Source: Dehalococcoidia bacterium (GTDB lineage Bacteria; Chloroflexota; Dehalococcoidia; GIF9; AB-539-J10). Taken from it: DNA of 64,000 nt. A program made the translations under genes and the position numbers. Positions 6,028-63,407 of this stretch are shown here, piece by piece. The stretch is from assembly GCA_003552125.1 (NCBI GenBank), contig PUON01000081.1:4417-68416 (forward strand). The letters are read 5' to 3'. The stretch's first letter is position 1. Each line of letters starts with the position of its first letter. The notes below the pieces were generated by a model. It saw nothing but the letters and a program-made list of their open reading frames with translations, made no database searches and was not told the DNA's origin.

Positions 6028-6124
6028 TATCTGCACGCCAGGATGCGTACCGATATAATGCAAGTGCGCGGCCGTTTACGCGAATACGGTCATCAGCAGC
6101 ATATGCGTGAGGAGGGCCCAGCCC

Positions 6125-16314: not shown

Positions 16315-16354
16315 TAGATGTATCCTCCTTACGCGCCCGGCGCAACTGTCCGTA

Positions 16355-16383
16355 TTATATTCGCAAACAAATTCGGCAGCAAA
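16355..16383 (-). promoter_or_regulatory. putative sigma-70-type promoter for abfD-like gene
   Basis: On the minus strand, TTGCTG-17 nt-TATAAT upstream of the abfD RBS. Confidence 0.3.
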
Positions 16384-16447
16384 GGGAATCGAGTGCAGTA
16401 GCCGGCCGTGCACGCAGCAACGACAGATCCCGACTCCTTGCCACACT

Positions 16448-16476
16448 TTGAACCGCAGGCATATCTGTACTACAAT
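16448..16476 (+). promoter_or_regulatory. putative sigma-70-type promoter for prfA
   Basis: TTGAAC-17 nt-TACAAT, 30 nt upstream of the prfA start. Divergent from the abfD promoter. Confidence 0.4.
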
Positions 16477-16505
16477 CGAATCCGCCCCAGCACGGAGACC
16501 CCTGC

Positions 16506-21033: not shown

Positions 21034-22544
<1,511 letters not shown>

Positions 22545-22548
<4 letters not shown>

Positions 22549-31200: not shown

Positions 31201-32139
31201 CTACTCAAACATTGCTCCAACGGACAGGCCAGTGTGGATTCGGTGGATGGCCTCGCCCAGCAACGATGACATGGATAGCACGGTGACCTTATTGAGAACC
31301 TTCTCGTTCCGGACCGGGATCGTGTCAGTCACCACCACTTCTTTCACCGGACATGTGCTGATTCGCTCGATGGCATGGCCAGAGAGCACCGCATGTGTCG
31401 CACATGCATATACCTCGCGAGCTCCTTTGTTGAGCAGGGTATTCACGACGGCGACGAGGGAACCAGCCGTATCGATCTCGTCATCTACGGTAAGGGCGAT
31501 TCGTCCGTTCACTTCACCGATCACGTTAAGCGCCTCAGTCGAGTCGATGTTGCCCAATCGGCGTTTCTCGATAATGGCAAGGGATGCACCCAGATTGGCC
31601 GCCACATCGCGCGCCCGTTTCGAGATGCCTATGTCGGTGGCAACCACCACCAGATCACCCAGCTTCTTGTTACGAAAGTTCTGGCTGAGAAGCGTGACAG
31701 CAGTTAGCTCATCTACGGGAATGGTGAAGAATCCCTGAATCTGCGGCGCGTGAAGGTCCACGGTCAACAACCGGTTTGCTCCAGCGGTCGTGAGCAGATC
31801 GGCAACCAGCCGCGCAGTGATCGGTACACGAGGCTGATCCTTCTTATCAGTCCTCCCGTATCCATAGTAGGGCACTACCGCGGTTATGCGGCCAGCGGAA
31901 GCGCGCTTCAGCGCGTCCAGCATGATGAGGAGTTCGACGAGGCTGGTGTTGACGGGGTTGCATATGGGCTGTACCACGAACACGTCACGCTGGCGCACAT
32001 TTTCGAGGATACGGGCGAAGGTGTTGCCATTGGAGAACTCAAACACTTCACTCTTTCCAACGGGTATGCCCAGGTAGTCACACACGGAGGCAGCGAGGGC
32101 CGGATGTGCGTTGCCCGTGAACACTTTGAGCTCGTCCAT
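31201..32139 (-). CDS. prs: ribose-phosphate pyrophosphokinase
   Basis: MDELKVFTGNAHPALA...PRPP-binding loop VVDDEIDTAGSL. Confidence 0.92.
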   Translation of the reverse strand: MDELKVFTGNAHPALAASVCDYLGIPVGKSEVFEFSNGNTFARILENVRQRDVFVVQPICNPVNTSLVELLIMLDALKRASAGRITAVVPYYGYGRTDKKDQPRVPITARLVADLLTTAGANRLLTVDLHAPQIQGFFTIPVDELTAVTLLSQNFRNKKLGDLVVVATDIGISKRARDVAANLGASLAIIEKRRLGNIDSTEALNVIGEVNGRIALTVDDEIDTAGSLVAVVNTLLNKGAREVYACATHAVLSGHAIERISTCPVKEVVVTDTIPVRNEKVLNKVTVLSMSSLLGEAIHRIHTGLSVGAMFE

Positions 32140-49031: not shown

Positions 49032-50657
49032 CTACAAAGGAAGATGTACCTGACTCCCGGGTGGCACGGTGCGAACTGCCGCTTTCATGAACTCGCGAAA
49101 GAGAGGGTGTGGTTGATCAGGCCGCGACTTGAACTCCGGATGAAACTGGCAACCCAGCATCCATGTATGCTGCTTGAGTTCTGCTATCTCGACCAGGGCA
49201 CCATCTTCGGACACTCCGCTGAAGAAGAGGCGATGCTGCAGGAGTTGGCGGAAGTCATTGTTAAACTCAAAACGATGACGATGTCGTTCATGTACCAGCT
49301 CGCATCCATAGGCGGACGATGCCCGGGTGCCGGGAACCAGGCGACACGGATAGCTGCCCAATCTCATCGTGCCACCCATACGGTCAACGCTACGCTGGTC
49401 AGGCAGAAGATCGATCACAGGGTACTGCGTCGAAGGATCAAATTCGGTGGAGTTCACACATTCTGTTCCGAAAGTGGCACGTGCAATCTCTATCACGAGC
49501 ACCTGCATGCCGAGACACAATCCGAGGTACGGTATGTTATTTACCCTCGCGTATCTTGCCGCCTGAATCATCCCTTCAATGCCACGCATTCCGAAACCAC
49601 CGGGCACCACGATTCCCTGCGCGGCGGACAGCATCGCATCCACGTTTTCGGGCGTCAAATGATCAGACTGCACCCAGAAGATCTTGAGCTTGCGATTATG
49701 AAAGAGGGCAGCATGTTTCAGCGCTTCCCTTACCGAAAGATAGGTATCTTCCACTTCGACGTACTTGCCAACCAGCGCGATGGACACAACCTCTTCAGCT
49801 TCGCGCAATCGTGACACCAGATTGTGCCACACAGCGAGGTCACAGTCAGCGTCAGGAAGCCCAAGGCCTCTGGCAATCAGTCCGCCAACTCCGGCATCAG
49901 CCAATACCAATGGCACCTCATATATGCTCTCGACGGTGGGTAACGGGACCACAGCTTCAGCAGGCACATCACAGAACAGCCCTACTTTGTCACGCAACTC
50001 TTCGGGCATCGGAAGGTCACTTCTGCACACGATAATATCCGGCTGGATACCCATGCTCCGCAATTCACGGACACTGTGCTGGGTGGGCTTGGTCTTCAGT
50101 TCTCCGGTTGAGGCAAGGTGGGGAAGGTAGGTTACGTGAACGTACATGACGTTCTGTCTGCCGACATCCTTGCGAATCTGTCTGATAGCTTCGATGAACG
50201 GCTGCCCCTCGATATCTCCAACGGTGCCGCCGATTTCGGTAATCAGCACATCAGCCCCGAGGTTATTCGCACAACTGAGGACGAGTCTCTTGATCTCATC
50301 CGTAACATGTGGCACAACCTGGATCGTGCCACCCAAGAACCGGCCCTCTCGCTCCATGTTTATGACGGAGCTATATACACGACCTGACGTCGCATTAGCC
50401 TCGCACGACAGATCCACACCAATGAAGCGCTCGTAGTGACCAAGATCAAGGTCGGTCTCAGCACCATCCTCGGTTACGTACACCTCGCCGTGCTGATATG
50501 GAGACATGGTGCCAGGGTCGACATTCAAATACGGGTCGAGCTTCTGGACAGCAACGTTGACGCCGCGGGCTTTGAGGAGCGTGCCAATGGATGCGACGGT
50601 GATTCCTTTGCCAACTGAACTGACAACACCACCTGTAACAAAAATATGCTTAGCCAT
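49032..50657 (-). CDS. pyrG: CTP synthase
   Basis: MAKHIFVTGGVVSSVGKGI... and C-terminal class I GATase (GLCLGMQ, HRHR). TATAAT (complement of 50685-50690) lies upstream; the track ORF extends to 50795. Confidence 0.92.
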   Translation of the reverse strand: MAKHIFVTGGVVSSVGKGITVASIGTLLKARGVNVAVQKLDPYLNVDPGTMSPYQHGEVYVTEDGAETDLDLGHYERFIGVDLSCEANATSGRVYSSVINMEREGRFLGGTIQVVPHVTDEIKRLVLSCANNLGADVLITEIGGTVGDIEGQPFIEAIRQIRKDVGRQNVMYVHVTYLPHLASTGELKTKPTQHSVRELRSMGIQPDIIVCRSDLPMPEELRDKVGLFCDVPAEAVVPLPTVESIYEVPLVLADAGVGGLIARGLGLPDADCDLAVWHNLVSRLREAEEVVSIALVGKYVEVEDTYLSVREALKHAALFHNRKLKIFWVQSDHLTPENVDAMLSAAQGIVVPGGFGMRGIEGMIQAARYARVNNIPYLGLCLGMQVLVIEIARATFGTECVNSTEFDPSTQYPVIDLLPDQRSVDRMGGTMRLGSYPCRLVPGTRASSAYGCELVHERHRHRFEFNNDFRQLLQHRLFFSGVSEDGALVEIAELKQHTWMLGCQFHPEFKSRPDQPHPLFREFMKAAVRTVPPGSQVHLPL

Positions 50658-50858
50658 GCTTGTGGCGGAATACCGTCCGCCCGCATTATAGAAAGGTGTA
50701 TCTACGGGTGTCAACGACAGGCGTGAAATTGCCGCTAACGCGCTCATGCCACCGCATCTAACCGGCAATGCACACGCGCCTATATTGCCGTCCAATCACC
50801 GACAGCCAACCGCATCGGCGGTTCGAGTTGATCCTCTATAACTATACGCAGAGATCTC

Positions 50859-50887
50859 TTGACAGCGCTGTGTGCCGATGCTAGACT
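50859..50887 (+). promoter_or_regulatory. putative promoter of the glutamate-synthase-like gene cluster
   Basis: TTGACA-17 nt-TAGACT, 47 nt upstream of the ferredoxin gene start. Confidence 0.45.
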
Positions 50888-50933
50888 CATACGGCAACCG
50901 GTGGCCGGTCGCCGTTTTATTAGGAAGTGAGCT

Positions 50934-51401
50934 ATGAGACGGGTATTAGTGAAGGACGATCTCTGTATAGGATGTGGCTTATGCAGGGTATTCTGCGAGG
51001 CTCACCACGCGGGAAACGACGATCCGTTGAAGTCGCTCAAGCGCCGGCTTTCACCTCCCGCAGGTGGAATACGTGTGGAGTGCAACGGAATACGAAGCAT
51101 TTCTGTGCGGTGTCGCCATTGCGAGGACGCTCCATGTATTCAAGCCTGCCTGACAGGGGCGATGTACCGCGACTATGACAGCGGACTTGTGTTGATCGAT
51201 GCCGATCGCTGCGTCGGATGCGGAACATGCACCCTCGTGTGTCCATTCGGTGCAATACGCAAAGATGAACAGACCGGTATTGCCGTCAAGTGTGACGGTT
51301 GCCTTGATCGGGATATGCCCAGATGCGTCAATGCCTGTCCCAACGATGCACTCGTGATTGAGCTTAAGGCAGCTGTTTCAACGATCGCGACACCAGCCTG
51401 A
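50934..51401 (+). CDS. multi-cluster 4Fe-4S ferredoxin
   Basis: Four Cys clusters: CIGCGLCRVFC, CRHCEDAPCIQAC, CVGCGTCTLVCP and CDGCLDRDMPRCVNACP. AGGAAG lies upstream. Confidence 0.8.
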   Translation: MRRVLVKDDLCIGCGLCRVFCEAHHAGNDDPLKSLKRRLSPPAGGIRVECNGIRSISVRCRHCEDAPCIQACLTGAMYRDYDSGLVLIDADRCVGCGTCTLVCPFGAIRKDEQTGIAVKCDGCLDRDMPRCVNACPNDALVIELKAAVSTIATPA

Positions 51402-51450
51402 GACAGATACACGCAGTGTTTCGGAACTGACCGTGCAAGGAGGATACGGA

Positions 51451-53043
51451 GTGAACCTGAGACGTCCTAATGCGAACGATGCAACGCGCACCGCCAACCG
51501 GTCCCGCGATGTGGTTCCCGTGAGCGGTCTATGCTCCCGGTGTATTGACGGGTGTACCGGCAACTGCGAGGTATTCAAGGCGAGTTTTCGCGCACGGGAA
51601 CTCATCTACCCCGGTCCGTTCGGCGAAGTTACCGCAGGTGCCGACAAAGACTATCCGGTCGACTACTCCCACCTCAACATCCAGGGCTATGCGATGGGAG
51701 CGAAGGGGCTGCCCGAGGGTGTCGATGGCAACTCGGACACCGCAACATTCCCCGCGGTCAGCACGGAAACGAGTTACGGATGGAATTCCAAGGTAAGCAT
51801 GCGCGTCCCGGTGTTCACCGGAGCCCTGGGGTCAACGGAGATTGCGAGAAAGAACTGGGACCACTTCGCGGTGGGCGCAGCGTTGAGTGGTATCACTCTC
51901 GTATGTGGAGAGAACGTCTGCGGCATTGATCCCGAACTGGAGCTGGATTCATACGGTAAGGTTCGGAGTGCTCCAGACATGGACAGACGCATCGAGACGT
52001 ACAGGAAGTACCAGGACGGCTATGGCGAGATTCTGGTGCAGGTGAATGTTGAAGACGCACGGCTGGGTGCGGCGGAGTACGTATACGCCAAACATGGACT
52101 GGAAAGCATCGAGTTGAAGTGGGGTCAGGGTGCCAAATGCATCGGCGGCGAGATCAAGGTCAACTCGCTGGAACGCGCTCTGCAATTGCAGCGGAGAGGA
52201 TATATAGTGACACCTGACCCATCTGATCCGACGAGCCAATCGGCTTTTCGCAGCGGTGCACTGAAAGAGGTCGAACGCCACAGCCGGCTTGGGTTCATAG
52301 ACGAACATGCGTTCTTGCAGGCCGTGGAGAACCTGCGCGATATTGGGTTCAAGCGAATCACGCTTAAAACCGGTGCTTACAGCCTGAGGGAACTGGCAAT
52401 GGCGATTAAGTGGGGTGCGAAGGCACACCTGGACCTGATTACTATCGATGGTGCACCGGGTGGAACCGGCATGAGTCCATGGAGGATGATGGAGGAATGG
52501 GGCATACCGAGTCTCTATCTCCACTCCGCTGCATACGAGTTCTCCGAAAGACTGTCGGCCAGGGGAGAGCGCGTACCAGACCTTGCGCTCGCAGGTGGAT
52601 TCAGCAGCGAAGATGGAATCTTCAAGGCATTAGCGCTTGGTGCGCCCTACGTCAAGGCGATATGCATGGGCCGGGCGCTCATGATACCCGGCATGGTAGG
52701 CAAGAACATAGAGAAGTGGCTCAGCGACGGTAAGTTGCCAAACACCATCAGTCAGTACGGCTCAACGCCCGAGGAGATCTTCATATGCTACGAGGAAGTG
52801 AAACACCTGGTGGGGCCTGAAGAGATGAGCCATATCCCGCTGGGAGCTATCGGGATCTATAGTTACGTACAGAAGCTGAAAGTCGGCCTGCAGCAGATCA
52901 TGGCAGGCAACCGCAATTTCAACGTTTCAACCATAAGCAGCAGCGACCTCATGGCATTGACTGAAGAGGCGGCCAGAGTGACTGGAATTCCCTATGTAAT
53001 GGATGCATACCGCGAGGATGCACTTGCGATACTCGATGGTTAG
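51451..53043 (+). CDS. glutamate synthase FMN-binding-domain (GltB domain 2)-like protein, divergent paralog 1
   Basis: Retains GQGAK and IDGAPGGTGMSP (GxGGTG) of the GltS central domain but lacks the PGxGGxLPGxKV stretch and the 3Fe-4S Cys triad. It carries instead an N-terminal CSRCIDGCTGNCE motif. GTG start 6 nt after AAGGAGG; the track ORF begins at 51358 inside the ferredoxin gene. Confidence 0.7.
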   Translation: MNLRRPNANDATRTANRSRDVVPVSGLCSRCIDGCTGNCEVFKASFRARELIYPGPFGEVTAGADKDYPVDYSHLNIQGYAMGAKGLPEGVDGNSDTATFPAVSTETSYGWNSKVSMRVPVFTGALGSTEIARKNWDHFAVGAALSGITLVCGENVCGIDPELELDSYGKVRSAPDMDRRIETYRKYQDGYGEILVQVNVEDARLGAAEYVYAKHGLESIELKWGQGAKCIGGEIKVNSLERALQLQRRGYIVTPDPSDPTSQSAFRSGALKEVERHSRLGFIDEHAFLQAVENLRDIGFKRITLKTGAYSLRELAMAIKWGAKAHLDLITIDGAPGGTGMSPWRMMEEWGIPSLYLHSAAYEFSERLSARGERVPDLALAGGFSSEDGIFKALALGAPYVKAICMGRALMIPGMVGKNIEKWLSDGKLPNTISQYGSTPEEIFICYEEVKHLVGPEEMSHIPLGAIGIYSYVQKLKVGLQQIMAGNRNFNVSTISSSDLMALTEEAARVTGIPYVMDAYREDALAILDG

Positions 53044-53073
53044 CGGGAAGAGATCGGTGAAGGAGCTGGACAG

Positions 53074-53445
53074 ATGTATCAGTACAACTGGGGTCCGCAT
53101 TTCATGGCGTCAACCGACGCCGCCCGAGTTCTCTCCGGCAGGGTACAACTGAAGGAGGAAGTGGATGAGGGATTGCTGCGGCGCGAATTGGACTTGATGG
53201 GTCTCTCCGGGCCGATAACGCGCATCATGAATCAATGGTTCATTCGCAGAATAGGTGAGAACACATGGCGTCAGTTAGCGGCATCCGACGAAAGGCCTTC
53301 TGATTTCAGAGTTATCTGGGACTCGACATCGGTGGAGAATGGTGACTATGAAGTCCTGGAACAGATGAACGTCTTCGTCAAGACAGGCAGTGAGCAGCAG
53401 GTCATCACACGAACCAACACGGTTAAGGTTGCGGTCGCCAATTAA
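53074..53445 (+). CDS. hypothetical protein (123 aa) embedded in the cluster
   Basis: ORF with GAAGGAG upstream. No motif recognised. Confidence 0.45.
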   Translation: MYQYNWGPHFMASTDAARVLSGRVQLKEEVDEGLLRRELDLMGLSGPITRIMNQWFIRRIGENTWRQLAASDERPSDFRVIWDSTSVENGDYEVLEQMNVFVKTGSEQQVITRTNTVKVAVAN

Positions 53446-53458
53446 CGGGTGGAGCACT

Positions 53459-54106
53459 ATGGATACACGTACAGTGGCAGTGATCGACTACGGCGCGGGC
53501 AACCTGAGGAGCGTACGTTCGGCCCTCTGCAGTCTCGGCTACAATGCATTGATTGTTGACTCAGCGCGCGGAGCCGCGGAGGCCCAAGCGATGATCCTTC
53601 CTGGTGTCGGCGCTGCTGCTGACACCATGCACAACCTGGTACGGAGCGGACTGGCACAGACTGTAATTGACTGGATCGCAGCGGGTCGACCGTTCCTGGG
53701 TATCTGCATGGGGATGCAGATCCTGTTCGAGTATTCCGACGAGGGGGGCGGCCAAAAGTGTCTTGGCGTGTTTCCAGGCAGGGTCGTGAAACTCCCAACC
53801 TCGCACAAAGTGCCGCACATGGGTTGGAATCAGGTGCACTACCGAAGAGATTCGGCGCTCTTTGACGGCATACCGAACGACTCAAACTTCTATTTCATAC
53901 ACAGCTATGTTGTGGAGCCAGAAGACGACGAAATGATCAAAGCTACTACAGAATACTCAGCGCAGTTCTGCAGCGTCATCAATCGCGGGGCAGTAGTTGC
54001 CGCGCAGTTCCATCCGGAAAAGAGCGGTGCGGTTGGGATGCGTTTCTATGAGAACTTCCTGTCGCTCGCTGCAGAGGGACGCTTGCGCCACGGGATATCC
54101 ACATGA
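53459..54106 (+). CDS. hisH: imidazole glycerol phosphate synthase, glutaminase subunit (class I GATase)
   Basis: VAVIDYGAGNLRSV...GVG...GICMGMQ...HMGWNQV...FHPEKS are HisH-specific motifs. Confidence 0.85.
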   Translation: MDTRTVAVIDYGAGNLRSVRSALCSLGYNALIVDSARGAAEAQAMILPGVGAAADTMHNLVRSGLAQTVIDWIAAGRPFLGICMGMQILFEYSDEGGGQKCLGVFPGRVVKLPTSHKVPHMGWNQVHYRRDSALFDGIPNDSNFYFIHSYVVEPEDDEMIKATTEYSAQFCSVINRGAVVAAQFHPEKSGAVGMRFYENFLSLAAEGRLRHGIST

Positions 54107-55446
54107 ACACTTACGAATACGTTATTGTCGGCAATTCCGCCGGCGGCCTTTCGGCCGCGAGAGAAATCCGCACCATCGACCAGTCCGGCGGCCTGTTGAT
54201 ACTGTCGGACGAGCAGTACCCTGCGTACTCACGTCCACTGATCGCAAAGCATATCTCACATACGAAGACAATTGAGGCAATGGAACTGGTCCCAAGAGAA
54301 TTCTACGTGGACAGCCATATGGAATGGTGGCCCGGAACTCGTGCAGTTCGCATCGACTACCCAGAGAGGACGGTTCTGCTGCATGATGGACGTTGCGTCC
54401 ACTGGAACAGTCTGCTATTGGCCACTGGCAGCAGTCCCATCGTGCCGCCGATTGAGGGCGTAACAAGGCAGGGAGTCCACACTTTCACTACCTATTGCGA
54501 CGCCGAATCCATCACAAGACAACTGCCGTCAGTACGACATGTTGTCGTAATTGGAGGTGGGTTCATCGGACTCAGTGCGGCGGATGCACTGCGACACAGA
54601 GAAGTTGACGTGACCATCGTGGAGATGCAGTCCAGGGTACTCAGCACAATGGTCGATGAAGAGGGATCGACACGCATTGAGGAGGCAGTCCGCGCTTCAG
54701 GAGCGGATGTCATCACAGGCAGACGAGTGGTCTCCATAAATGGTGATCACCCGGAATCATCGTCAGTGTCAAGCGTGACACTTGATGACAGGACTCGGCT
54801 CCAGTGCGAAATGGTCATACTGGCCGTGGGCGTCAGGCCACGCACTGAACTTGCGGAAGGCGTCGTGCCCATGAAGCAAGGCATCCTTGTGGACGAATTC
54901 ATGCGAACCGCCACGCCGGGCATCTATGCTTGTGGCGATGTATGCCAGACTCGTGATTTCGCGAGAGATGCAGACGCCGTGCTTCCCGTCTGGCCAAACG
55001 CGGTCGCTGGCGGCGCTGTAGCTGGCGCCACCATGGCAGGAATGCCTCGCAGCTACGAAGGTTCTACCACAATGAATGCAGTGCCATACTTCGGTCTCAG
55101 CGTGGTCTCCGCGGGCGTCGTGGAACACGACCCGGCCCTACACGACGTGTTGACCAGGCGGGATTCGACCGGATACACAAAGGTAGTACTCAAGGAAGGT
55201 GTGATCGTCGGCATGGTGTCGGTCGGCGACACGTCCCGGTGCGGTATCGTTTATCACCTCATGAAGCGCAAGGCAAATGTGGATAACTGGAAAGACATGC
55301 TCGTGCGAGAGGACTTTGGCATTCTCTCACTCCCAGATTCGTTGTGGCGAGATCAACTGACCCCCCTGGACGGGCGGCTACGCGACGAGACGGACAACGT
55401 TGCGAATGGTATAGTGAACCTGACCACAGGCGCGAAGAGATGGTGA
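54103..55446 (+). CDS. FAD-dependent pyridine nucleotide-disulfide-family oxidoreductase (NAD(P)H:acceptor reductase)
   Basis: Two Rossmann GxGxxG motifs, VIVGNSAGGLSAA (FAD) and VVVIGGGFIGLSAADAL (NAD(P)H), plus the C-terminal dimerisation region. ATGA overlap with hisH. Confidence 0.75.
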   Translation: MNTYEYVIVGNSAGGLSAAREIRTIDQSGGLLILSDEQYPAYSRPLIAKHISHTKTIEAMELVPREFYVDSHMEWWPGTRAVRIDYPERTVLLHDGRCVHWNSLLLATGSSPIVPPIEGVTRQGVHTFTTYCDAESITRQLPSVRHVVVIGGGFIGLSAADALRHREVDVTIVEMQSRVLSTMVDEEGSTRIEEAVRASGADVITGRRVVSINGDHPESSSVSSVTLDDRTRLQCEMVILAVGVRPRTELAEGVVPMKQGILVDEFMRTATPGIYACGDVCQTRDFARDADAVLPVWPNAVAGGAVAGATMAGMPRSYEGSTTMNAVPYFGLSVVSAGVVEHDPALHDVLTRRDSTGYTKVVLKEGVIVGMVSVGDTSRCGIVYHLMKRKANVDNWKDMLVREDFGILSLPDSLWRDQLTPLDGRLRDETDNVANGIVNLTTGAKRW

Positions 55447-55449
55447 TCC

Positions 55450-56109
55450 ATGAAAGATGTGACGAGACTCAATAACAGGTACGGAGACGACAAGGTCTTT
55501 GATGGATGCTCGATCTTCGGAGTCATGGACACCTCAGGTGCTCCGATGCCTGCCAATATCGCAGTTCAGGCCATCGATCTCATGCGCGACAGGGACAACG
55601 GGCTCGGTGGTGGCTTCGCTGCTTACGGACTCTACCCGGAGCACCCCAACAAATACGCGATGCATGTCATGTACACCAGCCCGGATGGAAAGCGTCAGAC
55701 AGAGGCTTACCTCGAGCAATGGTTCGATATCGACGTTTCAGAGGCCATGGACACAGATCCAACCGTTATTCAGGACAGTCCTTTGATGCAACGCTACTTC
55801 GCATCCATTCGTCGTGAACAACAGGGATCCAGAGACGAAGCCCAGCGCGTGGCGGACATCACTATGTACGTGAACTCACATATCAGCGACGCATTCATTT
55901 TTTCCGCTGGCAAGAACATGGGTGTCTTCAAAGGCGTGGGGCACCCCTACGATATCGCGCGCTTCTTTAAGCTCGAACAGTACAGCGGCTATATATGGAC
56001 CGCGCACGGCCGCTTCCCGACCAACACCCCCGGATGGTGGGGCGGTGCACATCCATTCAGTCTGCTGGACTGGACCGTAGTACACAACGGTGAGATATCG
56101 TCCTACTGA
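55450..56109 (+). CDS. class II (Ntn) glutamine amidotransferase, N-terminal portion, ending at an in-frame TGA
   Basis: CSIFGV (putative nucleophile Cys20 after a 19-aa leader), RFPTNT and VVHNGEISSY-TGA. The same reading frame continues into 56152..56598. Confidence 0.6.
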   Translation: MKDVTRLNNRYGDDKVFDGCSIFGVMDTSGAPMPANIAVQAIDLMRDRDNGLGGGFAAYGLYPEHPNKYAMHVMYTSPDGKRQTEAYLEQWFDIDVSEAMDTDPTVIQDSPLMQRYFASIRREQQGSRDEAQRVADITMYVNSHISDAFIFSAGKNMGVFKGVGHPYDIARFFKLEQYSGYIWTAHGRFPTNTPGWWGGAHPFSLLDWTVVHNGEISSY

Positions 56110-56151
56110 ATCAACCGGCGAACTCTGGAACAATACGGATACGATTGTGCA

Positions 56152-56598
56152 TTGCAGACAGACACCGAGGTCGTTACCTATGCCATGGATCTGCTTGTGC
56201 GCCGGCACGCCCTCTCCGTCGAGACTGCTGCGAGAGTACTCGCGGCGCCGTTCTGGTCCGATGCACCCCGGATTCAACCTGAGGAAGCAAAGACGATGGA
56301 GGCACTGAGGATTACCTACGGCGGCTTGCTGCTCAATGGGCCCTTCACCGTCATCATCGCTAGAGAAGGGGAAATGATAGGTTTGACCGACAGGATTCGA
56401 CTTCGCCCCCTCGTGGTCGCCTCATCGGGACCACGGGTGTACCTGTCATCAGAGGAATCGGCTATCCGACTTGTCGATCCGGAGATCGATGAGGCATGGA
56501 TACCAGTTGGTGGCCATCCGGTCGTCGCACGACGTGGACACGTCCCGACCCTTGAGGAACAATGGCCCGCAAGCGAGGTGTCTTCCGTTGCTGACTAA
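56152..56598 (+). CDS. class II glutamine amidotransferase, C-terminal portion (same frame as 55450..56109)
   Basis: ...SETDTEVV-like block [14 protein letters not shown] and [11 protein letters not shown] (DRNGLRP motif). There is no SD before the TTG 56152; the two pieces make one domain split only by TGA 56107-56109. Confidence 0.5.
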
Positions 56599-57355
56599 GC
56601 GCATCATAGCTTGCCTCGACGTGAAAGACGGACGTGTCGTCAAGGGAACCAGCTTCGAGTCGCTACGCGACTCCGGCGATCCCGTCGAGCTTGCGCGCCG
56701 CTACTACTTCGAGGGTGCAGACGAACTGGTATTTCTCGACATCACCGCCAGCAAGGAGCATCGAGCCACCATGGCCGCACTGGTGGAGCGTGTCGCTGAC
56801 GCCGTGTTCATACCGCTCACTGTTGGTGGCGGACTGAACTCGGTTGAGGACATGCGGCGACTGCTTCTCTGTGGTGCAGACAAGATCTCGTTGAACACAG
56901 CGGCAGTCAAACAACCCGAGCTTATCAGTCGAGCAGCGGAGCGCTTCGGTAGCCAGTGCGTAGTTGTCGCTATTGACGCCAAGCGCGTGCCAGAACATGA
57001 GCCGTACAGATGGCTGGTACACACGTACGGCGGGAGTGTCGCAACTTCACTCGACGCAGTACAATGGGCCGCTCAGGTAGCAGAGCTTGGTGCGGGGGAG
57101 ATATTGTTGACCAGTATGGACGCAGATGGACACCGCGCCGGATACGACATCGAACTGACGAGAGTGGTTGCCACCTCAGTTCCAATTCCGGTTATCGCAA
57201 GTGGCGGCGCTGGGTCACCGGAGGATCTCCACCGTGCGCTGACCGATGGCAAAGCTGATGCCGTGCTCGCAGCCAGTATTTTTCACTACAGCGAGTTCGC
57301 GATTACACAGACGAAGGAATACCTGCACCACAAAGGCCTGAGTATCAGGCGATAG
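56588..57355 (+). CDS. hisF: imidazole glycerol phosphate synthase, cyclase subunit
   Basis: [39 protein letters not shown]...IPLTVGGG...ASGGAGS forms the HisF (beta/alpha)8 signature. TTG start 9 nt after GCGAGG, overlapping the amidotransferase 3' end. Confidence 0.85.
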
Positions 57356-57364
57356 GGTAGTGAC

Positions 57365-58867
57365 ATGAAGAGTTTCCTGCCGCCCAGGTTCATAGTTGAC
57401 CGCGATCCATCGCGCTGTATCCAGTGCAAGGTTTGCGTTAACCAGTGCAGCTTCGGAGTTCAGAGCTTCGATGAAGACGAACAGGCCCTTAAGTCACGTG
57501 AACAGAACTGCGTTGGATGCCACAGGTGCGTTGCGTTCTGCCCCACAAACGCCCTCATCATACGTCGCAATCCGCTTGATTACCGTGCAAATTTCAACTG
57601 GCGACCGGAGGTTATCGAGGACATCCTGAAGCAGGCCGAGAGCGGTGGCATGCTGCTGACGGGAATGGGCGACGACAAGAACCACACAATCTACTGGGAC
57701 CACCTGCTGCTTAACGCCAGCCAGGTAACCAATCCCTCCATCGATCCTTTGCGTGAACCTATGGAGCTCACGACCTTTCTCGGAAGAAAGCCCGACCGTC
57801 TTCAGTTCGATGAGCGTGGAAACCTGATCACCGTAATGGCGCCTCAGGTGAAGCTGGAGACACCAATTATGTTTGCCGCCATGTCCTACGGCGCAGTCAG
57901 TCTCAACGTCCATACTTCACTTGCTCGGGCTGCAACAGAGCTTGGAACACTTTGGAACACGGGAGAGGGCGGACTGCACCCCACACTCGCACGCTATGCG
58001 CCAAATACAGTTGTACAGGTGGCCTCAGGGCGTTACGGCGTGGATACTGACTACCTACGCAAGGCCCGTATCATCGAGATCAAGATAGGACAGGGTGCCA
58101 AACCTGGTATCGGTGGCCATCTCCCTGGAGAAAAAGTAACCGATGACGTCTCCCGAACACGAATGATTCCCAGCGGGACTGACGCAATCTCGCCGGCGCC
58201 TCATCACGACATCTACTCGATAGAAGACTTGCGCCAATTGATCTATGCGATTAAGGAAGCGACCAATTACGAGAAGCCGGTTTCGGTGAAGGTTGCTGCC
58301 GTGCACAACGTGGCAGCAATCGCCAGCGGGATGGTACGTGCGGGAGCAGATATGATCGTCGTTGACGGGTTGCGCGGGGCCACCGGCGCCGCACCGAAGG
58401 CTATTCGGGACAATGTCGGTATTCCTATCGAGCTCGCGCTCGCATCGGTTGACACCCGCCTGCGACAGGAAGGGATCCGCAATCAGGCTTCTGTCGTAGC
58501 TTCAGGTGGACTCCGTTGCAGTGGCGACGTCGCCAAGGCCATAGCCCTCGGTGCAGACGCGGTCTATATCGGCACCGCTGCGCTTATCGCCCTCGGCTGC
58601 CACGTGTGTCAGCAGTGTCACACAGGAAAGTGCAGTTGGGGCATATGCACCAGTGATCCGGCTCTCACGAAGCGTATCAACCCTGAAATAGGGGCACAAA
58701 GACTTGTGAATCTCGTCAGAGGCTGGAGCCTTGAGATCAAAGATATGCTGGGAGGCATGGGGGTTAACGCAGTTGAGAGTCTCAGAGGGAACCGGCTCCA
58801 TCTCAGGGGAGTGGGTTTGAGCGATACCGAACTGGACGTTCTTGGCGTAAAGATGGCGGGCGGCTGA
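57365..58867 (+). CDS. ferredoxin-fused glutamate synthase FMN-domain (GltB domain 2) protein, paralog 2
   Basis: N-terminal 2x[4Fe-4S] (CIQCKVCVNQC, CVGCHRCVAFCP). Canonical IEIKIGQGAKPGIGGHLPGEKV and VDGLRGATGAAP. Cys cluster CHVCQQCHTGKC is like the GltS 3Fe-4S site. Confidence 0.85.
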   Translation: MKSFLPPRFIVDRDPSRCIQCKVCVNQCSFGVQSFDEDEQALKSREQNCVGCHRCVAFCPTNALIIRRNPLDYRANFNWRPEVIEDILKQAESGGMLLTGMGDDKNHTIYWDHLLLNASQVTNPSIDPLREPMELTTFLGRKPDRLQFDERGNLITVMAPQVKLETPIMFAAMSYGAVSLNVHTSLARAATELGTLWNTGEGGLHPTLARYAPNTVVQVASGRYGVDTDYLRKARIIEIKIGQGAKPGIGGHLPGEKVTDDVSRTRMIPSGTDAISPAPHHDIYSIEDLRQLIYAIKEATNYEKPVSVKVAAVHNVAAIASGMVRAGADMIVVDGLRGATGAAPKAIRDNVGIPIELALASVDTRLRQEGIRNQASVVASGGLRCSGDVAKAIALGADAVYIGTAALIALGCHVCQQCHTGKCSWGICTSDPALTKRINPEIGAQRLVNLVRGWSLEIKDMLGGMGVNAVESLRGNRLHLRGVGLSDTELDVLGVKMAGG

Positions 58868-58898
58868 TATCAGGCTTCGTGAAACTGGAGACACAGCG

Positions 58899-59633
58899 AT
58901 GGAAATCAACGCACGTTTCATGAGCTACCGCGACCTGAACGCAGCCCTGAATCAGGCTGTCGATGCTGGCACAACGCACATCACCGTGCAGAACGTCAAC
59001 GGACAACGTTACATAGGAACAAACCTTCATGGTCGTGTAACAGTGGAACTCCATGGAACACCAGGCAACGACCTTGCTGCATTCATGAATGGGCCAGCGA
59101 TCATTGTGCGCGGTAACGGACAGGACGGCGGTGGCAACACTATGAATGGCGGCGAAATAGTGATCCACGGCCACGCGGGCGATGCGCTGGGCCTCGCGGC
59201 ACGGGGTGGCAGTATACTGGTTCGCGATGATGCCGGGTACCGGGCAGGCATCCACATGAAAGAATATCAGGGGCGTGGCGCGCTCGTTGTGATCGGTGGG
59301 GGCGCGCAGGACTTCCTGGGAGAATACATGGCTGGTGGCACACTGATCGTGTTAGGATTGTCACAGCGGGGCGCCGGGTGGTCACACACCAGATTTGTCG
59401 GAACGGGGATGCATGGAGGTGCGATTTACCTGCGCGGACGCATTGACAGTCACCAGATTGGGAAGGAAGTAGGCATAGCCCCTCCTGATGACAGAGATAC
59501 GCGAATCATCCAGGAAGCAGTCGCGAAATACTCGGAACACTTCGGCACCGACCCCAAGCGAATACTTGATGCCGAGTTCGTTAAGCTGTTTCCGCTGTAT
59601 CTGCGTCCCTACGGTCGATTGTATGCCTATTAA
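58899..59633 (+). CDS. glutamate synthase C-terminal GXGXG-domain protein (GltB domain 3 / FwdC-like)
   Basis: Repeated Gly-rich beta-helix motifs (GNGQDGGGNTMNGGEIVIHG, GGGAQDFLGEYMAGGTLIVLG). GGAG lies upstream. Confidence 0.85.
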   Translation: MEINARFMSYRDLNAALNQAVDAGTTHITVQNVNGQRYIGTNLHGRVTVELHGTPGNDLAAFMNGPAIIVRGNGQDGGGNTMNGGEIVIHGHAGDALGLAARGGSILVRDDAGYRAGIHMKEYQGRGALVVIGGGAQDFLGEYMAGGTLIVLGLSQRGAGWSHTRFVGTGMHGGAIYLRGRIDSHQIGKEVGIAPPDDRDTRIIQEAVAKYSEHFGTDPKRILDAEFVKLFPLYLRPYGRLYAY

Positions 59634-59645
59634 CCAGAGCAAGTC

Positions 59646-60317
59646 GTGAGCTACAAACCGATTACGCACCTGGCACTGATACGTCCTGAACCACCGCCCT
59701 TCCCCGACTGCTACCGTGAATTGACCGAACTAGGTGCGGAGGTGCGTGAAGCACTCATCGGCGGGATTATCGAACACTGTCTAATACCCTCTCCCGCCGC
59801 CATAGTCCTGATGGCGGATTCGGCCGACCATCTTCACAAGGTTCCACCAATCATCAAGGCACTGACGGCCAGCCCTGTTCTTGCGCTCATCACTCCCGAG
59901 TTGCTTCACGCCACCTGGCCAACGGTCGGTGTGGAGGACTTCATGGTCGGCACAGGATCAGGCTCGGAGTTACGGGCACGAGCTATCCATCTGATGCGGC
60001 TACACCCGGAGAGTCGCCACCTGATCCGGCATGGAGACCTTGCTATAGATACGGCATCCTGCGAAGTGAGCGTGGGTGGACGGCTCATCGAACTCACCTT
60101 CAAGGAATACGAACTGCTGAAATTCCTGGCACACGAACCTGGCCGCGTCTTCTCACGACAGGTACTGCTGGACAGAGTATGGGGTTACGATTACTTCGGC
60201 GGCGACCGCACCGTGGATGTTCACATTCGCCGCCTTCGAAGCAAGCTTGAGGATGCAAATCATACTTTCATTGATACGGTCCGCAATATAGGGTACCGTC
60301 TGCATAGGGATAAGTGA
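59646..60317 (+). CDS. OmpR-family winged-helix transcriptional regulator with degenerate receiver-like N-terminus
   Basis: The C-terminus LTFKEYELLKFLAHEPGRVFSRQVLLDRVWGYDYFGGDRTVDVHIRRLRSKL...IDTVRNIGYRL is OmpR/PhoB-type. The N-terminal half lacks a clear DD...D...K phospho-acceptor set. GTG start 12 nt after the GXGXG gene. Confidence 0.6.
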   Translation: MSYKPITHLALIRPEPPPFPDCYRELTELGAEVREALIGGIIEHCLIPSPAAIVLMADSADHLHKVPPIIKALTASPVLALITPELLHATWPTVGVEDFMVGTGSGSELRARAIHLMRLHPESRHLIRHGDLAIDTASCEVSVGGRLIELTFKEYELLKFLAHEPGRVFSRQVLLDRVWGYDYFGGDRTVDVHIRRLRSKLEDANHTFIDTVRNIGYRLHRDK

Positions 60318-60488
60318 GCGACCCGTTCCATTCCGGCTGCATACGAGTGCGTCCGATGTCTGCAGTTGGACTCTGACAGTGCTCATCGCCGGGCAGATTG
60401 TATCCGCCACGTGTGATATTATTGCGCTCGACTCATGCCCAATGGCATGCAGTACTGGTATCCGGCTCAGATTGTGCTGGAGGATTTA

Positions 60489-61934
60489 ATGGTTCACCTC
60501 GACAACTATGAAACAATCATCGGGCTGGAGGTTCATGCGCAGCTACTCACCCGCAGTAAGATGTTCTGCGGTTGTCAGGCAGACTACCAGGACGCACCAC
60601 CCAACACTCGTGTCTGTCCACTGTGCATGGGTATGCCCGGTACTTTGCCAGTCGCGAACCGTGCGGCAATCGAATGCGTGATGACTACGGCGCTGGCCCT
60701 GCACTGCGAATTGCCACTGCACACACGCTTCGACCGGAAGAACTACTTCTATCCAGACCTGATGAAGGGATACCAGATTTCGCAGTACGAGGCGCCTATA
60801 GGGCGAAACGGATGGCTCGACATCGAGGTGGCTGGAGCGGTTAAGCGCATCGGAGTGACGCGCGTTCACCTGGAAGAGGACGTCGCAAAAGCATTCCATA
60901 TGGACGGCTACAGCCTTATCGACATGAACCGGTCAGGCATGCCTTTGATGGAGACGGTCAGTGAACCGGACCTTCGGTCACCCGAAGAGGCGCGCGACTA
61001 CCTCATACGTCTCAGAAACCTGCTGAGGTATCTGGGCGTCTCAACCGGCAATATGGAGGAAGGCAGCTTCCGCTGTGATGCCAATATCAGCCTGCGCCCC
61101 ATCAATGCGAGCGGCTTTGGCGCCAAGATCGAAGTCAAGAACATGAACAGCTTTCGCAGCGTCTATCGCGCATTGAAGTACGAGCAGGAGCGACAGGCCG
61201 AGATACTGAGCAACGGCGGGACGCTTCGCCAGGAGACACGGGGTTGGCAGGACGACGTGGGAGTTACCATTTTACAGCGAACCAAGGAATTCGCAGAGGA
61301 TTATCGGTACTTCCCTGAACCGGACGTTCCTCCGCTCGTACTGACGCCCCTATGGGTCGAAGAGGTTAAGGCGCGTATGCCGGAGCTCCCTGAGGTACGA
61401 CGCTCACGGTTTGTGTCTGAACTGCAGATGTCGCCTCAGGATGCCACCATTCTCGTGTCCTCCAGAGCAATGTCTGACTTCTTCGAAGAATGCGTGGCGC
61501 GATCATCAATCTCACAGGCACGAACCGTAGCCAACTGGCTTCTCGGTGACGTAAGTCACCTCATCAATGCGGATGGAGTGGAGATCTGCGACTGTCCCCT
61601 TACGCCTGACGGCATCGCCGAATTCATCGACCTGATCGATCGTGGAACCCTCGGCGGTCCGGCGGCAAAGACAGTAGTGGAACACATGTATCGTACGGGA
61701 AAGTCACCATCTGCAATTATCGAGGAGATGGATTTGGGTCAGATCAGCGGTTCTGACGCGATCCTTGACGCCGTCCGTCAGGTAATCCAGGAGAATCCGA
61801 AGGCCGTAACGGACTATCGTGCCGGTAAGGCGCAATCGATTACTTTCCTGACGGGTCAGGTCATGCGCCTCACACGCGGCAGGGCAAACCCGGCGCTTAC
61901 TCGCGACATGCTCGAGAGAGAGCTTAGATTCTAA
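60489..61934 (+). CDS. gatB: Asp-tRNA(Asn)/Glu-tRNA(Gln) amidotransferase subunit B
   Basis: YETIIGLEVHAQL...CPLCMGMPGTLPV and a C-terminal YqeY-like domain. GGAGGA lies 5 nt before ATG 60489. Confidence 0.9.
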   Translation: MVHLDNYETIIGLEVHAQLLTRSKMFCGCQADYQDAPPNTRVCPLCMGMPGTLPVANRAAIECVMTTALALHCELPLHTRFDRKNYFYPDLMKGYQISQYEAPIGRNGWLDIEVAGAVKRIGVTRVHLEEDVAKAFHMDGYSLIDMNRSGMPLMETVSEPDLRSPEEARDYLIRLRNLLRYLGVSTGNMEEGSFRCDANISLRPINASGFGAKIEVKNMNSFRSVYRALKYEQERQAEILSNGGTLRQETRGWQDDVGVTILQRTKEFAEDYRYFPEPDVPPLVLTPLWVEEVKARMPELPEVRRSRFVSELQMSPQDATILVSSRAMSDFFEECVARSSISQARTVANWLLGDVSHLINADGVEICDCPLTPDGIAEFIDLIDRGTLGGPAAKTVVEHMYRTGKSPSAIIEEMDLGQISGSDAILDAVRQVIQENPKAVTDYRAGKAQSITFLTGQVMRLTRGRANPALTRDMLERELRF

Positions 61935-62063
61935 TCGGATTGGAACCCTGTCCAGTTTACCCTGCGGTAACCCCTTCGAAACATCACTGCAACAATCCGT
62001 CCCTACAATGTCGCCATTACGCGGGAAGGCGTCACCACTTCCGCAAACAGCAAGGAGGACGAC

Positions 62064-63407
62064 ATGGCCAAGAGAACCCGGGATGAAGCAAAGGAGTATG
62101 TGCTCAAGACAGCCAAGGAGCACGATGTCAAATTCATCAGACTCTGGTTCACGGATATACTCGGTCTTCTCAAGAGCTTCGCAATCACCGTTGAGGAGCT
62201 TGAGGGCGCTCTCGAAGACGGCATGGGATTTGATGGATCTTCAATCGAGGGCTTCTGTCGAATCGACGAGAGCGACATGATGGCACTGCCTGATCCCGAG
62301 ACCTTCCAGCTACTGCCGTGGCGACCCAAGGATCATCACTCGGTGGCCAGGATGTTCTGCGACGTGATGCGGCCCGAAGGAACGCCATTCGAGGGAGATC
62401 CCCGGTACGTGCTGAAGCGGAACCTGCAGAAAGCAGCAGACCTCGGATACACCTTCTACGTGGGTCCCGAACTGGAGTATTTCTACTTCAAGGATAAGTT
62501 TGGGACTGAGCCGCTGGACGAGGGCGGGTACTTCGACATGACGCCACTCGACCTGGCCACTGACCTGAGAAGGGAAACCGTGTTGACTCTCGAGGCAATG
62601 GGTATAGGTATCGAGTATTCACACCACGAGGTGGCTCCCAGCCAACACGAGATCGACATGCGATACACAGACGCGCTTACCATGGCTGATAACGTCATGA
62701 CTTATCGGCTGGTGGTGAAGCAGATCGCCCTGGACCGTGGCGTCCACGCTACATTCATGCCGAAGCCTGTGTTCGGCATGAATGGCAGCGGCATGCACAC
62801 GCACCAGTCCCTCTTCAAGAACGGACACAACGCGTTCTTTGATCCGAACGGACAGTACCATCTCTCGGATGCAGCGCGCTGCTACATCGCCGGCTTGCTC
62901 AAACACGCGCCTGAGTTCACGTCGATCACCAACCAGCTGGTGAACTCTTACAAGCGACTCGTACCAGGATATGAGGCACCGGTCTACCTTTCCTGGGCCC
63001 GTCGCAACCGTTCGGACCTGATCAGGGTGCCGGGCTACAAGCCAGGCAGAGAGGCTTCCACACGCGTAGAATTGCGCTCCCCCGATCCCACATGCAACCC
63101 GTACCTCGCGTTCTCGGTCATGTTGGCGGCCGGTCTGGAGGGCATCGAGAAGGGCTACGATTGTCCGGAGCCCGTCGAGGAAAACGTCTACGTTATGCCT
63201 GAGGAGGAGCGAATCGCACGCGGCATAGGGACATTGCCATCAACTCTGTATGAGGCGGTCAAACTCACCCGGGAGAGCGAGGTTGTTCGCAAAGCCTTGG
63301 GGGATCACGTGTTCAATTCGTTCGTACAGAACAAACTCATCGAGTGGGATAGCTACCGAACGCAGGTAACAGGGTACGAGCTTAATCGCTATCTACCGGT
63401 GTACTGA
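62064..63407 (+). CDS. glnA: glutamine synthetase, type I
   Basis: FTDILGLLKSF, GSSIEGF, and the ATP/glutamate-binding region PKPVFGMNGSGMHTHQS. AAGGAGG upstream. Confidence 0.92.
   Translation: MAKRTRDEAKEYVLKTAKEHDVKFIRLWFTDILGLLKSFAITVEELEGALEDGMGFDGSSIEGFCRIDESDMMALPDPETFQLLPWRPKDHHSVARMFCDVMRPEGTPFEGDPRYVLKRNLQKAADLGYTFYVGPELEYFYFKDKFGTEPLDEGGYFDMTPLDLATDLRRETVLTLEAMGIGIEYSHHEVAPSQHEIDMRYTDALTMADNVMTYRLVVKQIALDRGVHATFMPKPVFGMNGSGMHTHQSLFKNGHNAFFDPNGQYHLSDAARCYIAGLLKHAPEFTSITNQLVNSYKRLVPGYEAPVYLSWARRNRSDLIRVPGYKPGREASTRVELRSPDPTCNPYLAFSVMLAAGLEGIEKGYDCPEPVEENVYVMPEEERIARGIGTLPSTLYEAVKLTRESEVVRKALGDHVFNSFVQNKLIEWDSYRTQVTGYELNRYLPVY

Follow-up and report, generated by a model that had tools for sequence, protein, structure and literature searches.

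Within 64,000 nucleotides of a Dehalococcoidia genome (contig PUON01000081.1 of assembly GCA_003552125.1, positions 4,417 to 68,416 of the forward strand; hereafter the window), we analyzed a cluster of ten co-directional genes that is predicted to encode a glutamate synthase (GOGAT) divided among separate polypeptides, together with a reductase and a ferredoxin of its own. Interleaved with the GOGAT genes are hisH and hisF, which appear to encode an ordinary imidazole glycerol phosphate (IGP) synthase. We consider co-regulation of glutamine-using enzymes, and not a new composite enzyme, to be the likeliest cause of this placement. Domains were called with Pfam and NCBIfam profile searches, supplemented by PDB sequence searches for selected subunits, and the cluster reads as follows (FMN, flavin mononucleotide; FAD, flavin adenine dinucleotide; Ntn, N-terminal nucleophile).

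50934-51401, + strand: ferredoxin with four Cys4 motifs (Fer4_11, 72 bits in Pfam)
51451-53043, + strand: GltB paralog 1, a divergent FMN-binding Glu_synthase-family protein (PF01645, 57.0 bits against a cut-off of 20.4)
53074-53445, + strand: 123-aa protein (no Pfam or NCBIfam match)
53459-54106, + strand: hisH, glutaminase subunit of IGP synthase (TIGR01855, 232.9 bits against a cut-off of 105.4)
54103-55446, + strand: FAD/NAD(P)H oxidoreductase, AorC/PadH-like (Pyr_redox_2 plus Rubredoxin_C, 193 bits in Pfam)
55450-56598, + strand: class-II (Ntn) glutamine amidotransferase, GOGAT domain 1 (GATase_2, PF00310, 39.9 bits against a cut-off of 19.9)
56588-57355, + strand: hisF, cyclase subunit of IGP synthase, TTG start (TIGR00735, 375.4 bits against a cut-off of 294.55)
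57365-58867, + strand: ferredoxin-fused GltB FMN (synthase) domain, GOGAT domain 2 (PF01645, 467.5 bits, plus a Fer4 dicluster)
58899-59633, + strand: GXGXG beta-helix subunit, GOGAT domain 3 (PF01493, 99.4 bits)
59646-60317, + strand: OmpR-family winged-helix regulator whose N-terminus is receiver-like but degenerate (Trans_reg_C, 99.2 bits)

A sequence-only reading of the window had described ten packed, co-directional open reading frames (ORFs) here; all ten are present at the coordinates it gave, and the profile searches uphold the domains it assigned to them. It had put the spacers and overlaps at 0-30 nt, which is right as to tight packing and wrong as to range: the successive junctions measure 49, 30, 13, -4, 3, -11, 9, 31, and 12 nt, that is, from -11 to +49. 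A scan for terminator-like sites on the + strand found none inside the cluster, and the ten-gene region appears to be one operon-like unit of a nitrogen-assimilation locus. The arrangement is not a matter of chance, since the same order, including both his genes, recurs in about 20 species-level loci. In a scan of one genome per species, the nearest species-level relatives of the locus were uncultured Dehalococcoidia, and an identical HisF sequence is also carried on a contig of the metagenome-assembled genome (MAG) GCA_003562995.1.

The GOGAT core comprises five genes, namely the four-cluster ferredoxin (first gene of the conserved core), the FAD/NAD(P)H reductase, GATase_2, the ferredoxin-fused GltB FMN domain, and GXGXG. 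To survey its neighborhoods, the glutaminase subunit was scanned against one genome per species, which yielded 80 loci, and the gene content of these loci was mapped by tblastn with the window proteins; related loci are cited below by L numbers. The five-gene core order was seen in Dehalococcoidia, Bathyarchaeia, Anaerolineae, Armatimonadota, Bacillota (Desulfovirgula, Fuchsiella, and Gracilibacter), Desulfovibrionaceae, and others. The loci of methanogens, Methanoperedens, and Archaeoglobales have just the three GltB-domain genes, and some bacterial loci place the ferredoxin and reductase elsewhere within the cluster. The order GATase_2, FMN subunit, GXGXG is kept in most of the 80 loci, with the reductase and four-cluster ferredoxin genes adjacent or near-adjacent in about 60 of them. 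Gene sets for a split GOGAT with its own reductase and ferredoxin are common, and the window is not peculiar in having one.

Matches of the individual subunits bear out the split, archaeal-type GOGAT of the sequence-only reading, with the class-II glutaminase, the ferredoxin-fused FMN subunit, and the adjacent GXGXG protein all encoded as separate polypeptides. The FMN subunit aligns with GltB residues 854-1174 of PDB entries 1ea0, 2vdc, and 6s6s (E 5e-68) and has Fer4_7/9/10/21 matches at its residues 13-64, while the GXGXG protein matches FwdC and the C-terminal domain of Fd-GltS in PDB. The nucleophile of the glutaminase, Cys20, is kept in 85 of 85 loci and is preceded by Gly or Ala; a PDB search returned no solved structure that matches this subunit. 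The Pfam, NCBIfam, and PDB matches likewise confirm the proposal of a non-GltD reductase with a ferredoxin of its own. The reductase has AorC as its top PDB match (8c0z_E, E 4e-45) and PadH as its top NCBIfam match (291 bits, under the equivalog cut-off), with the NirB N-terminus also among the best matches; it matches no GltD model and is not a GltD-type beta subunit. The four-cluster ferredoxin is of the HycB/DmsB/AorA type (PDB 8c0z_C, the AorA Fe-S subunit, E 5e-17; HycB4, E 4e-21) and scores 76 bits against PadI, under the equivalog cut-off. A Pyr_redox_2 subunit and a four-cluster ferredoxin, the makings of an electron module, are encoded beside the catalytic subunit.

From homology and gene linkage, we predict that the core encodes a five-subunit, archaeal-type split glutamate synthase in which electrons pass from NAD(P)H to the FMN subunit. 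NAD(P)H would reduce the FAD of the Pyr_redox_2 protein, whose electrons would then run through the small ferredoxin, by way of its four [4Fe-4S] clusters, to the pair of clusters in the ferredoxin domain of the GltB FMN subunit, and finally to FMN. Ammonia freed from glutamine by the class-II glutaminase subunit would meet 2-oxoglutarate on the FMN subunit, where the imine would be reduced to glutamate, with the GXGXG protein serving as a structural third domain. Split archaeal GOGAT sets, which we take to include M. jannaschii MJ1350-1352 and T. maritima TM0394-TM0398, likewise encode GATase_2, ferredoxin-fused Glu_synthase, and GXGXG by a gene each, in the same order. To the archaeal trio, this locus, many bacteria, and Bathyarchaeia add the four-cluster ferredoxin and the Pyr_redox_2 reductase, and the window's clade further adds hisH, hisF, the 123-aa protein, and a second GltB-like gene within the operon. 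The Azospirillum GltB/GltD enzyme (PDB 1EA0, 2VDC, 6S6S) has a homologous FMN synthase domain and shares the class-II glutaminase and GXGXG domains; there a pyridine-nucleotide flavoprotein supplies the electrons by way of Fe-S clusters, as is predicted here. In this locus, in contrast, each domain is a polypeptide of its own, a central domain is lacking, and the reductase is not GltD-like. The pairing of a four-cluster ferredoxin with an FAD/NAD Pyr_redox_2 subunit is shared with AorABC (PDB 8C0Z) and PadI/PadH; the modules of AorABC and of phenylglyoxylate:NAD+ oxidoreductase couple NAD(H) to ferredoxin-type catalytic subunits. Their partner is a tungsten or thiamine pyrophosphate enzyme, whereas here it is the GltS FMN subunit, and the Pad scores stay below cut-off. 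Split GltS in Archaea has been mentioned merely as ORFs (PMC8097209), and the literature that we searched held no characterized example of the enzymology of an archaeal-type split GOGAT; nothing relevant was found in it on hisHF within operons for GOGAT, on locus tags of Dehalococcoides, or on the archaeal-type enzyme.

Both embedded his genes look like those of a functional IGP synthase. The Cys-His-Glu triad, the Lys, and the oxyanion Gly of HisH are invariant in 21 of 21 embedded loci (those with hisH and hisF inside the GOGAT cluster), as are the equivalents of HisF R5, D11, K19, E46, D98, K99, D130, E167, and D176 in all 23 embedded loci compared. The list of functional residues and its numbering follow what we take to be those of T. 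maritima IGP synthase, with D11 and D130 as the catalytic pair and R5-E46-K99-E167 as the ammonia gate. HisF of the embedded loci also retains the HisH-specific gate and interface residues, and the WbuZ and AglZ models of NCBIfam stay under their cut-offs. The pair is like T. maritima HisH-HisF in its equivalog scores, triad, D11/D130, and gate. What sets it apart from typical HisH-HisF is context: the two genes are parted by two GOGAT genes within a nitrogen operon, and hisA, hisB, and hisI are absent within 64 kb. As far as these residues and scores indicate, hisH and hisF are orthodox IGP synthase genes and not GOGAT subunits, and the idea that they are paralogs recruited to GOGAT finds no support, the two being separable from it as described below.

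The sequence-only reading placed hisH and hisF among the GOGAT genes with no further his gene nearby, and this holds across the 64-kb window, in which all ORFs of at least 150 aa were assigned and no HisA-like sequence occurs. No HisA-like sequence was found in loci L001-L086 either, nor was any other his gene in any fetched locus. When neighborhoods were compared, the order ferredoxin, (123-aa protein), hisH, reductase, GATase_2, hisF, ferredoxin-fused GltB, GXGXG was found again in some 20 Dehalococcoidia species and in further metagenome contigs. Junctions in the embedded loci are tight throughout, and that between GATase_2 and hisF overlaps by 11, 8, or 7 nt in 14 of 22 related embedded loci (11 nt in the window). 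Elsewhere, the core mostly stands without hisHF: this is so in about 12 Chloroflexota loci and in all other phyla save one Bathyarchaeon. Cores without hisHF were seen in Bathyarchaeia, Anaerolineae, Armatimonadota, Bacillota, and Desulfovibrionaceae as well as in basal Dehalococcoidia.

The association has also been broken within the clade. In a tree of GATase_2 and ferredoxin-fused GltB (200 bootstraps; built by neighbor joining only, with moderate support), the embedded loci were monophyletic in 0 of 200 bootstraps, and a clade without hisHF (L018, L020, L021, and L059; 199 of 200 bootstraps) nests among them, so hisH and hisF left the operon at least once. In L090 (6383-12359 of ERZ25039477 contig_16867), hisH and hisF abut each other, the gene for the OmpR-like protein follows, then come amt, glnB, and glnA, and GOGAT genes are absent; fragmentation of several genes of this locus resembles that of a frameshift-rich assembly. 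L092 (4033-7593 of JGI Ga0373621_000018) has an NrpR-like gene, a bona fide hisF that overlaps its stop codon and has no hisH beside it, and then paralog 1. A Bathyarchaeia MAG (L063, 12640-16683) carries GXGXG-hisF-hisH-guaA, where guaA encodes the glutamine-hydrolyzing GMP synthase, and here IGP synthase and a further amidotransferase appear to have come to adjoin a split GOGAT independently.

Genes of nitrogen and glutamine metabolism flank the operon on both sides, among them:

60435-61934, + strand: gatB (GatB equivalog, 633 bits), 117 nt after the regulator
62064-63407, + strand: type I glnA (GlnA equivalog, 540 bits), after a spacer of 129 nt
49032-50795, - strand: pyrG, glutamine-hydrolyzing CTP synthase (TIGR00337, 761 bits)

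The divergent pyrG shares its intergenic region with the operon and occupies the same position in L002, L004, and L005. Before the cluster come gltX, etfBA, gatA, a Trp/Tyr-tRNA ligase gene, and pyrG; after it come gatB, glnA, and gdh, the last of them convergent. Of the three genes said to follow the cluster, gatB and glnA are indeed co-directional with it, and gdh is present but on the - strand. The notion of a nitrogen supercluster stands, with pyrG, gatA, gatB, glnA, and gdh here and amt, glnB, nadE, asnB, and NrpR-like genes in relatives; nadE follows glnA in at least 10 loci, asnB occurs in L085, and pyrG and gatCAB occur in the window's clade. The stretch 60318-62063 of the window is without the amt-glnB pair(s) that separate the regulator from gatB/glnA in its closest relatives, L002 (14981-18489) and L005.

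Two features lie in the intergenic region upstream of the first gene:

50859-50887, + strand: sigma-70-like promoter TTGACA-17-TAGACT with an extended-10 TG (10/12 consensus matches)
50893-50906, directly 3' of the -10 element: palindrome GGCAACCGGTGGCC (family consensus GGCAAnCGnTTGCC)

The promoter named by the sequence-only reading is real as a consensus match: it is the best promoter-like match in the region, where promoter-like hits as a class do not exceed those in shuffled sequence, and its -35 hexamer is invariant in the window and in the three related species at L002, L004, and L005. Transcription probably starts there. Of 64 loci, 24, two Bathyarchaeia among them, carry the palindrome GGCAAnCGnTTGCC in the 160 nt that precede the first gene, against about 0.7 expected from its overall density; it mostly lies 39-45 nt before the start codon. 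It also precedes the NrpR-like genes of L034, L087, and L092 (3984-3997 in the last), paralog 1 within L005 (5861-5874), and, by 178 nt, the stand-alone hisH of L090 (6205-6218). A terminator-like scan flags GGCAACCGGTGGCC as a hairpin, and the leader hairpin is the palindrome itself; variants in the arms of the stem are non-compensatory, which favors a protein-binding palindrome over an RNA hairpin. At gathering thresholds, Rfam models matched only the 16S rRNA and two tRNAs in the window, with no riboswitch or leader RNA.

The repressor NrpR of methanogens is released by 2-oxoglutarate and has the operator GGAA-N6-TTCC. In a way that recalls the methanogen regulon, a 14-bp GG...CC palindrome here lies at the promoter of nitrogen genes, and NrpR-like genes (PF01995) are present at homologous loci (L003, L011, L014, L017, L021, L085, and L091). 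The differences are that GGCAAnCGnTTGCC is not GGAA-N6-TTCC, that the host is bacterial with a promoter of sigma-70 type, and that glnA and amt have no site. NrpR homologs have been noted in Dehalococcoides and ascribed to lateral transfer from archaea (PMC1852104). These observations suggest that GGCAAnCGnTTGCC is a candidate operator of an NrpR-like repressor, and we infer a single nitrogen regulon in which GOGAT, hisHF, paralog 1, and nrpR would be governed at this palindrome. The OmpR-like regulator of the sequence-only reading does have the winged-helix domain, but no recognizable receiver: Response_reg gave no match even at E values up to 1, no acidic "DD" pocket was seen, and its N-terminal 120 residues have only a weak, sub-threshold match to actinobacterial GlnR_1st (E 0.035). 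In many Dehalococcoidia loci the gene is kept behind GXGXG, and in L090 it follows hisF; its product may be an orphan, phosphorylation-independent nitrogen regulator.

The class-II glutaminase gene, listed by the sequence-only reading like the other nine, is interrupted by an in-frame TGA at 56107-56109 that splits it into ORFs of 219 and 148 aa. The TGA stands for the codon of Gly220 (GGA to TGA, a G-to-T change). A homolog from another assembly (P0001) is intact and 100% identical save at Gly220, and position 220 is Gly in 81 of 85 homologous loci and Asp in the other 4. We considered recoding of TGA as selenocysteine or Gly and rejected it, given the Gly or Asp of the homologs at this position and the use of TGA as an ordinary stop by 17 of the 47 genes in the window. 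The intact, otherwise identical homolog, the prevalence of Gly, and the ordinary use of TGA as a stop together point to a nonsense change, which stems either from a mistake in sequencing or assembly or from a loss at strain level; in the latter case the gene is a pseudogene.

Paralog 1 is a divergent GltB-like protein. Its GTG start lies behind an AAGGAGG Shine-Dalgarno sequence, it matches PF01645 only over profile positions 188-302 of 369, and it is 28% identical over 195 aa to the operon's own FMN subunit. Nothing in it aligns with the Cys-rich stretch that follows the barrel of the FMN subunit, so that it is not a full-length GltB synthase domain, and it has no NCBIfam or PDB sequence match. 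It does carry an invariant N-terminal C-x2-C-x3-C-x3-C motif (C28, C31, C35, and C39). The family is narrow, with 191 representatives at 50% identity (E <=1e-30), and extremely conserved: homologs 78-91% identical make up over 120 clusters, which bear the name "FMN-binding glutamate synthase family protein." Stand-alone copies adjoin an NrpR-like gene in 5 of the 5 contexts sampled (among L087, L088, L089, L092, and L093), and across the 80-locus survey paralog 1 lies within the operon solely in the window's sub-clade. More distant homologs stand beside the GOGAT cluster in one Bathyarchaeon and among glnA copies in one Armatimonadota genome. An AlphaFold2 (AF2) model from a shallow alignment reached a predicted local distance difference test (pLDDT) score of 57, Foldseek returned just generic FMN TIM barrels for it, and the protein would on this model be FMN-barrel-like at most. 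Paralog 1 thus looks like a separate, highly conserved FMN/Fe-S enzyme that joined the operon only in this sub-clade; ferredoxin-fed reductive amination is our guess at its reaction. The 123-aa protein belongs to no Pfam or NCBIfam family and has no Cys residues, and its AF2 single-sequence model (pLDDT 51) is unusable. Its homologs occupy the same operon position in L002-L005 (L003 included), L010, L021, L059, L084, and L085, whereas in L014, L017, and L028 they have been shifted to a place behind glnA or the regulator.

With a probability of roughly 0.68, we read this region as a co-regulated glutamine-amidotransferase locus in which ordinary IGP synthase genes sit inside a split GOGAT operon. 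The simplest reading is that enzymes which consume glutamine are grouped, and expressed together, with the system that supplies glutamine and glutamate; genes of other amidotransferases occur at the same loci. hisH and hisF would have lodged at fixed operon positions in one large Dehalococcoidia clade and would have been retained for joint expression with the glutamine supply system, as in the pattern of pyrG, gatCAB, nadE, asnB, and guaA, with control probably exerted through GGCAAnCGnTTGCC; the likeliest controller would be a repressor of the NrpR type that senses 2-oxoglutarate and has its gene elsewhere.

Several observations weigh against this interpretation. Some concern the proposed control: GGCAAnCGnTTGCC was not found before glnA, amt, or nadE, and its absence from glnA and amt means that it is not a general nitrogen operator; it could be an RNA hairpin; and the 64-kb window holds no NrpR homolog. 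The exact operator GGAA-N6-TTCC, tried as a candidate, has two matches in the window, neither of them near the operon and no more than chance would give. Others concern the genes themselves. If the TGA is real, the GOGAT of this strain is left without an intact glutaminase, and the embedded hisHF are likely, but no more than likely, to be the sole copies in their genome. Finally, the placement of two subunits in interleaved positions calls for an account of its own, the simplest neutral one being insertion combined with block transposition: insertion of an hisHF pair and one transposition of the reductase-GATase_2 block would yield the observed order. The arrangement has been kept over about 40% protein divergence, a hint that it is itself under selection, and we regard the persistence of the interleaved order as a mild oddity.

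A first alternative to the co-regulated locus, which we regard as unlikely, is that the embedded hisHF are extra, nitrogen-regulated isozymes that supply IGP synthase (or 5-aminoimidazole-4-carboxamide ribonucleotide, AICAR) capacity under glutamine scarcity, with a canonical his operon and its own hisHF elsewhere in these genomes. Redundancy would make it easier to understand how both genes were lost together at least once with no obvious replacement at the locus, and the lack of any other his gene nearby and the palindrome that hisHF have to themselves in L090, where GOGAT is absent, fit this explanation. Scores well above the equivalog cut-offs and invariant functional residues are, however, what a housekeeping enzyme would have, and Dehalococcoidia genomes are small. 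HisF homologs sampled at 65-85% identity, moreover, were always at the nitrogen locus and never in a his operon.

Less probable, and not supported by the evidence, is the composite ammonia-channeling machine that the sequence-only reading had entertained, in which HisH and HisF, and perhaps paralog 1, are physically built into the split GOGAT and share glutamine, ammonia tunnels, or the electron module. The conservation of the interleaved order in about 20 species speaks for it, and the kept overlaps (-11 for GATase_2/hisF, -4 for hisH/reductase) are compatible with co-translational assembly; hisF is also linked to GOGAT or to paralog 1 in layouts as varied as those of L063 and L092. The core nevertheless lacks hisHF in most lineages, hisHF persist in L090 without any GOGAT gene, the pair has exited the operon in nested lineages, and paralog 1 normally stands alone beside an NrpR-like gene. 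HisF keeps the gate and interface residues that are specific for HisH, IGP synthase requires no redox partner, and gene overlaps are common in compact genomes. We give similarly little credence to the idea that the fixed interleaving reflects a physical or kinetic coupling of IGP synthase and GOGAT, in a multi-amidotransferase assembly whose two enzymes would be formed jointly and would draw on one glutamine pool or regulate one another, with paralog 1 as a new ferredoxin-fed nitrogen enzyme on the same electron module. Least credible is that the split GltS-like genes encode a related amine-forming enzyme, of the N-methylglutamate-synthase type or another 2-oxoacid aminating enzyme: the literature searched held no characterized archaeal-type split enzyme of such composition and the glutaminase subunit has no counterpart among solved structures, but the FMN subunit matches the GltB synthase domain (467 bits, E 5e-68), the cluster lies beside glnA, amt, glnB, and NrpR-like genes in many phyla, and no methylamine-pathway genes were found among the nearby ORFs of the window, so that on gene context the N-methylglutamate-synthase-like reading was judged unlikely.

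Other genes of the window are recorded here for completeness. A complete, solitary 16S rRNA gene lies at 21035-22545 (- strand) between the genes for RNase Y and type III pantothenate kinase, and as the window has no 23S or 5S rRNA gene, the rRNA genes are unlinked. An HpaB-family protein is encoded at 14845-16626 (- strand); the family includes 4-hydroxybutyryl-CoA dehydratase in anaerobes. The window also encodes ThyX (14125-14715, - strand), a short, 295-aa protein with a MetE catalytic domain (6107-6994, + strand), and a phosphoribosyl pyrophosphate synthetase (31201-32139, - strand); neither these three nor the HpaB-family gene has a link to the operon described here.

For annotation, hisH and hisF at these loci should be named plain IGP synthase genes and not GOGAT subunits. 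Many anaerobic bacteria and archaea carry the five-gene split GOGAT with its NAD(P)H-polyferredoxin module; its enzymology is missing from the literature that we searched, and this locus and its roughly 80 relatives define its subunit set. The presence of at least GOGAT, hisHF, and a GltB-like enzyme behind a common palindrome that resembles the archaeal NrpR operator makes for a testable case of an archaeal repressor system acting on the promoters of bacteria. The strongly conserved GltB-like protein linked to NrpR may be a candidate enzyme for some missing reaction of nitrogen metabolism. Dehalococcoidia seem to cluster their glutamine-consuming amidotransferases (hisHF, nadE, asnB, pyrG, and gatCAB) around the glutamine synthetase-GOGAT system.

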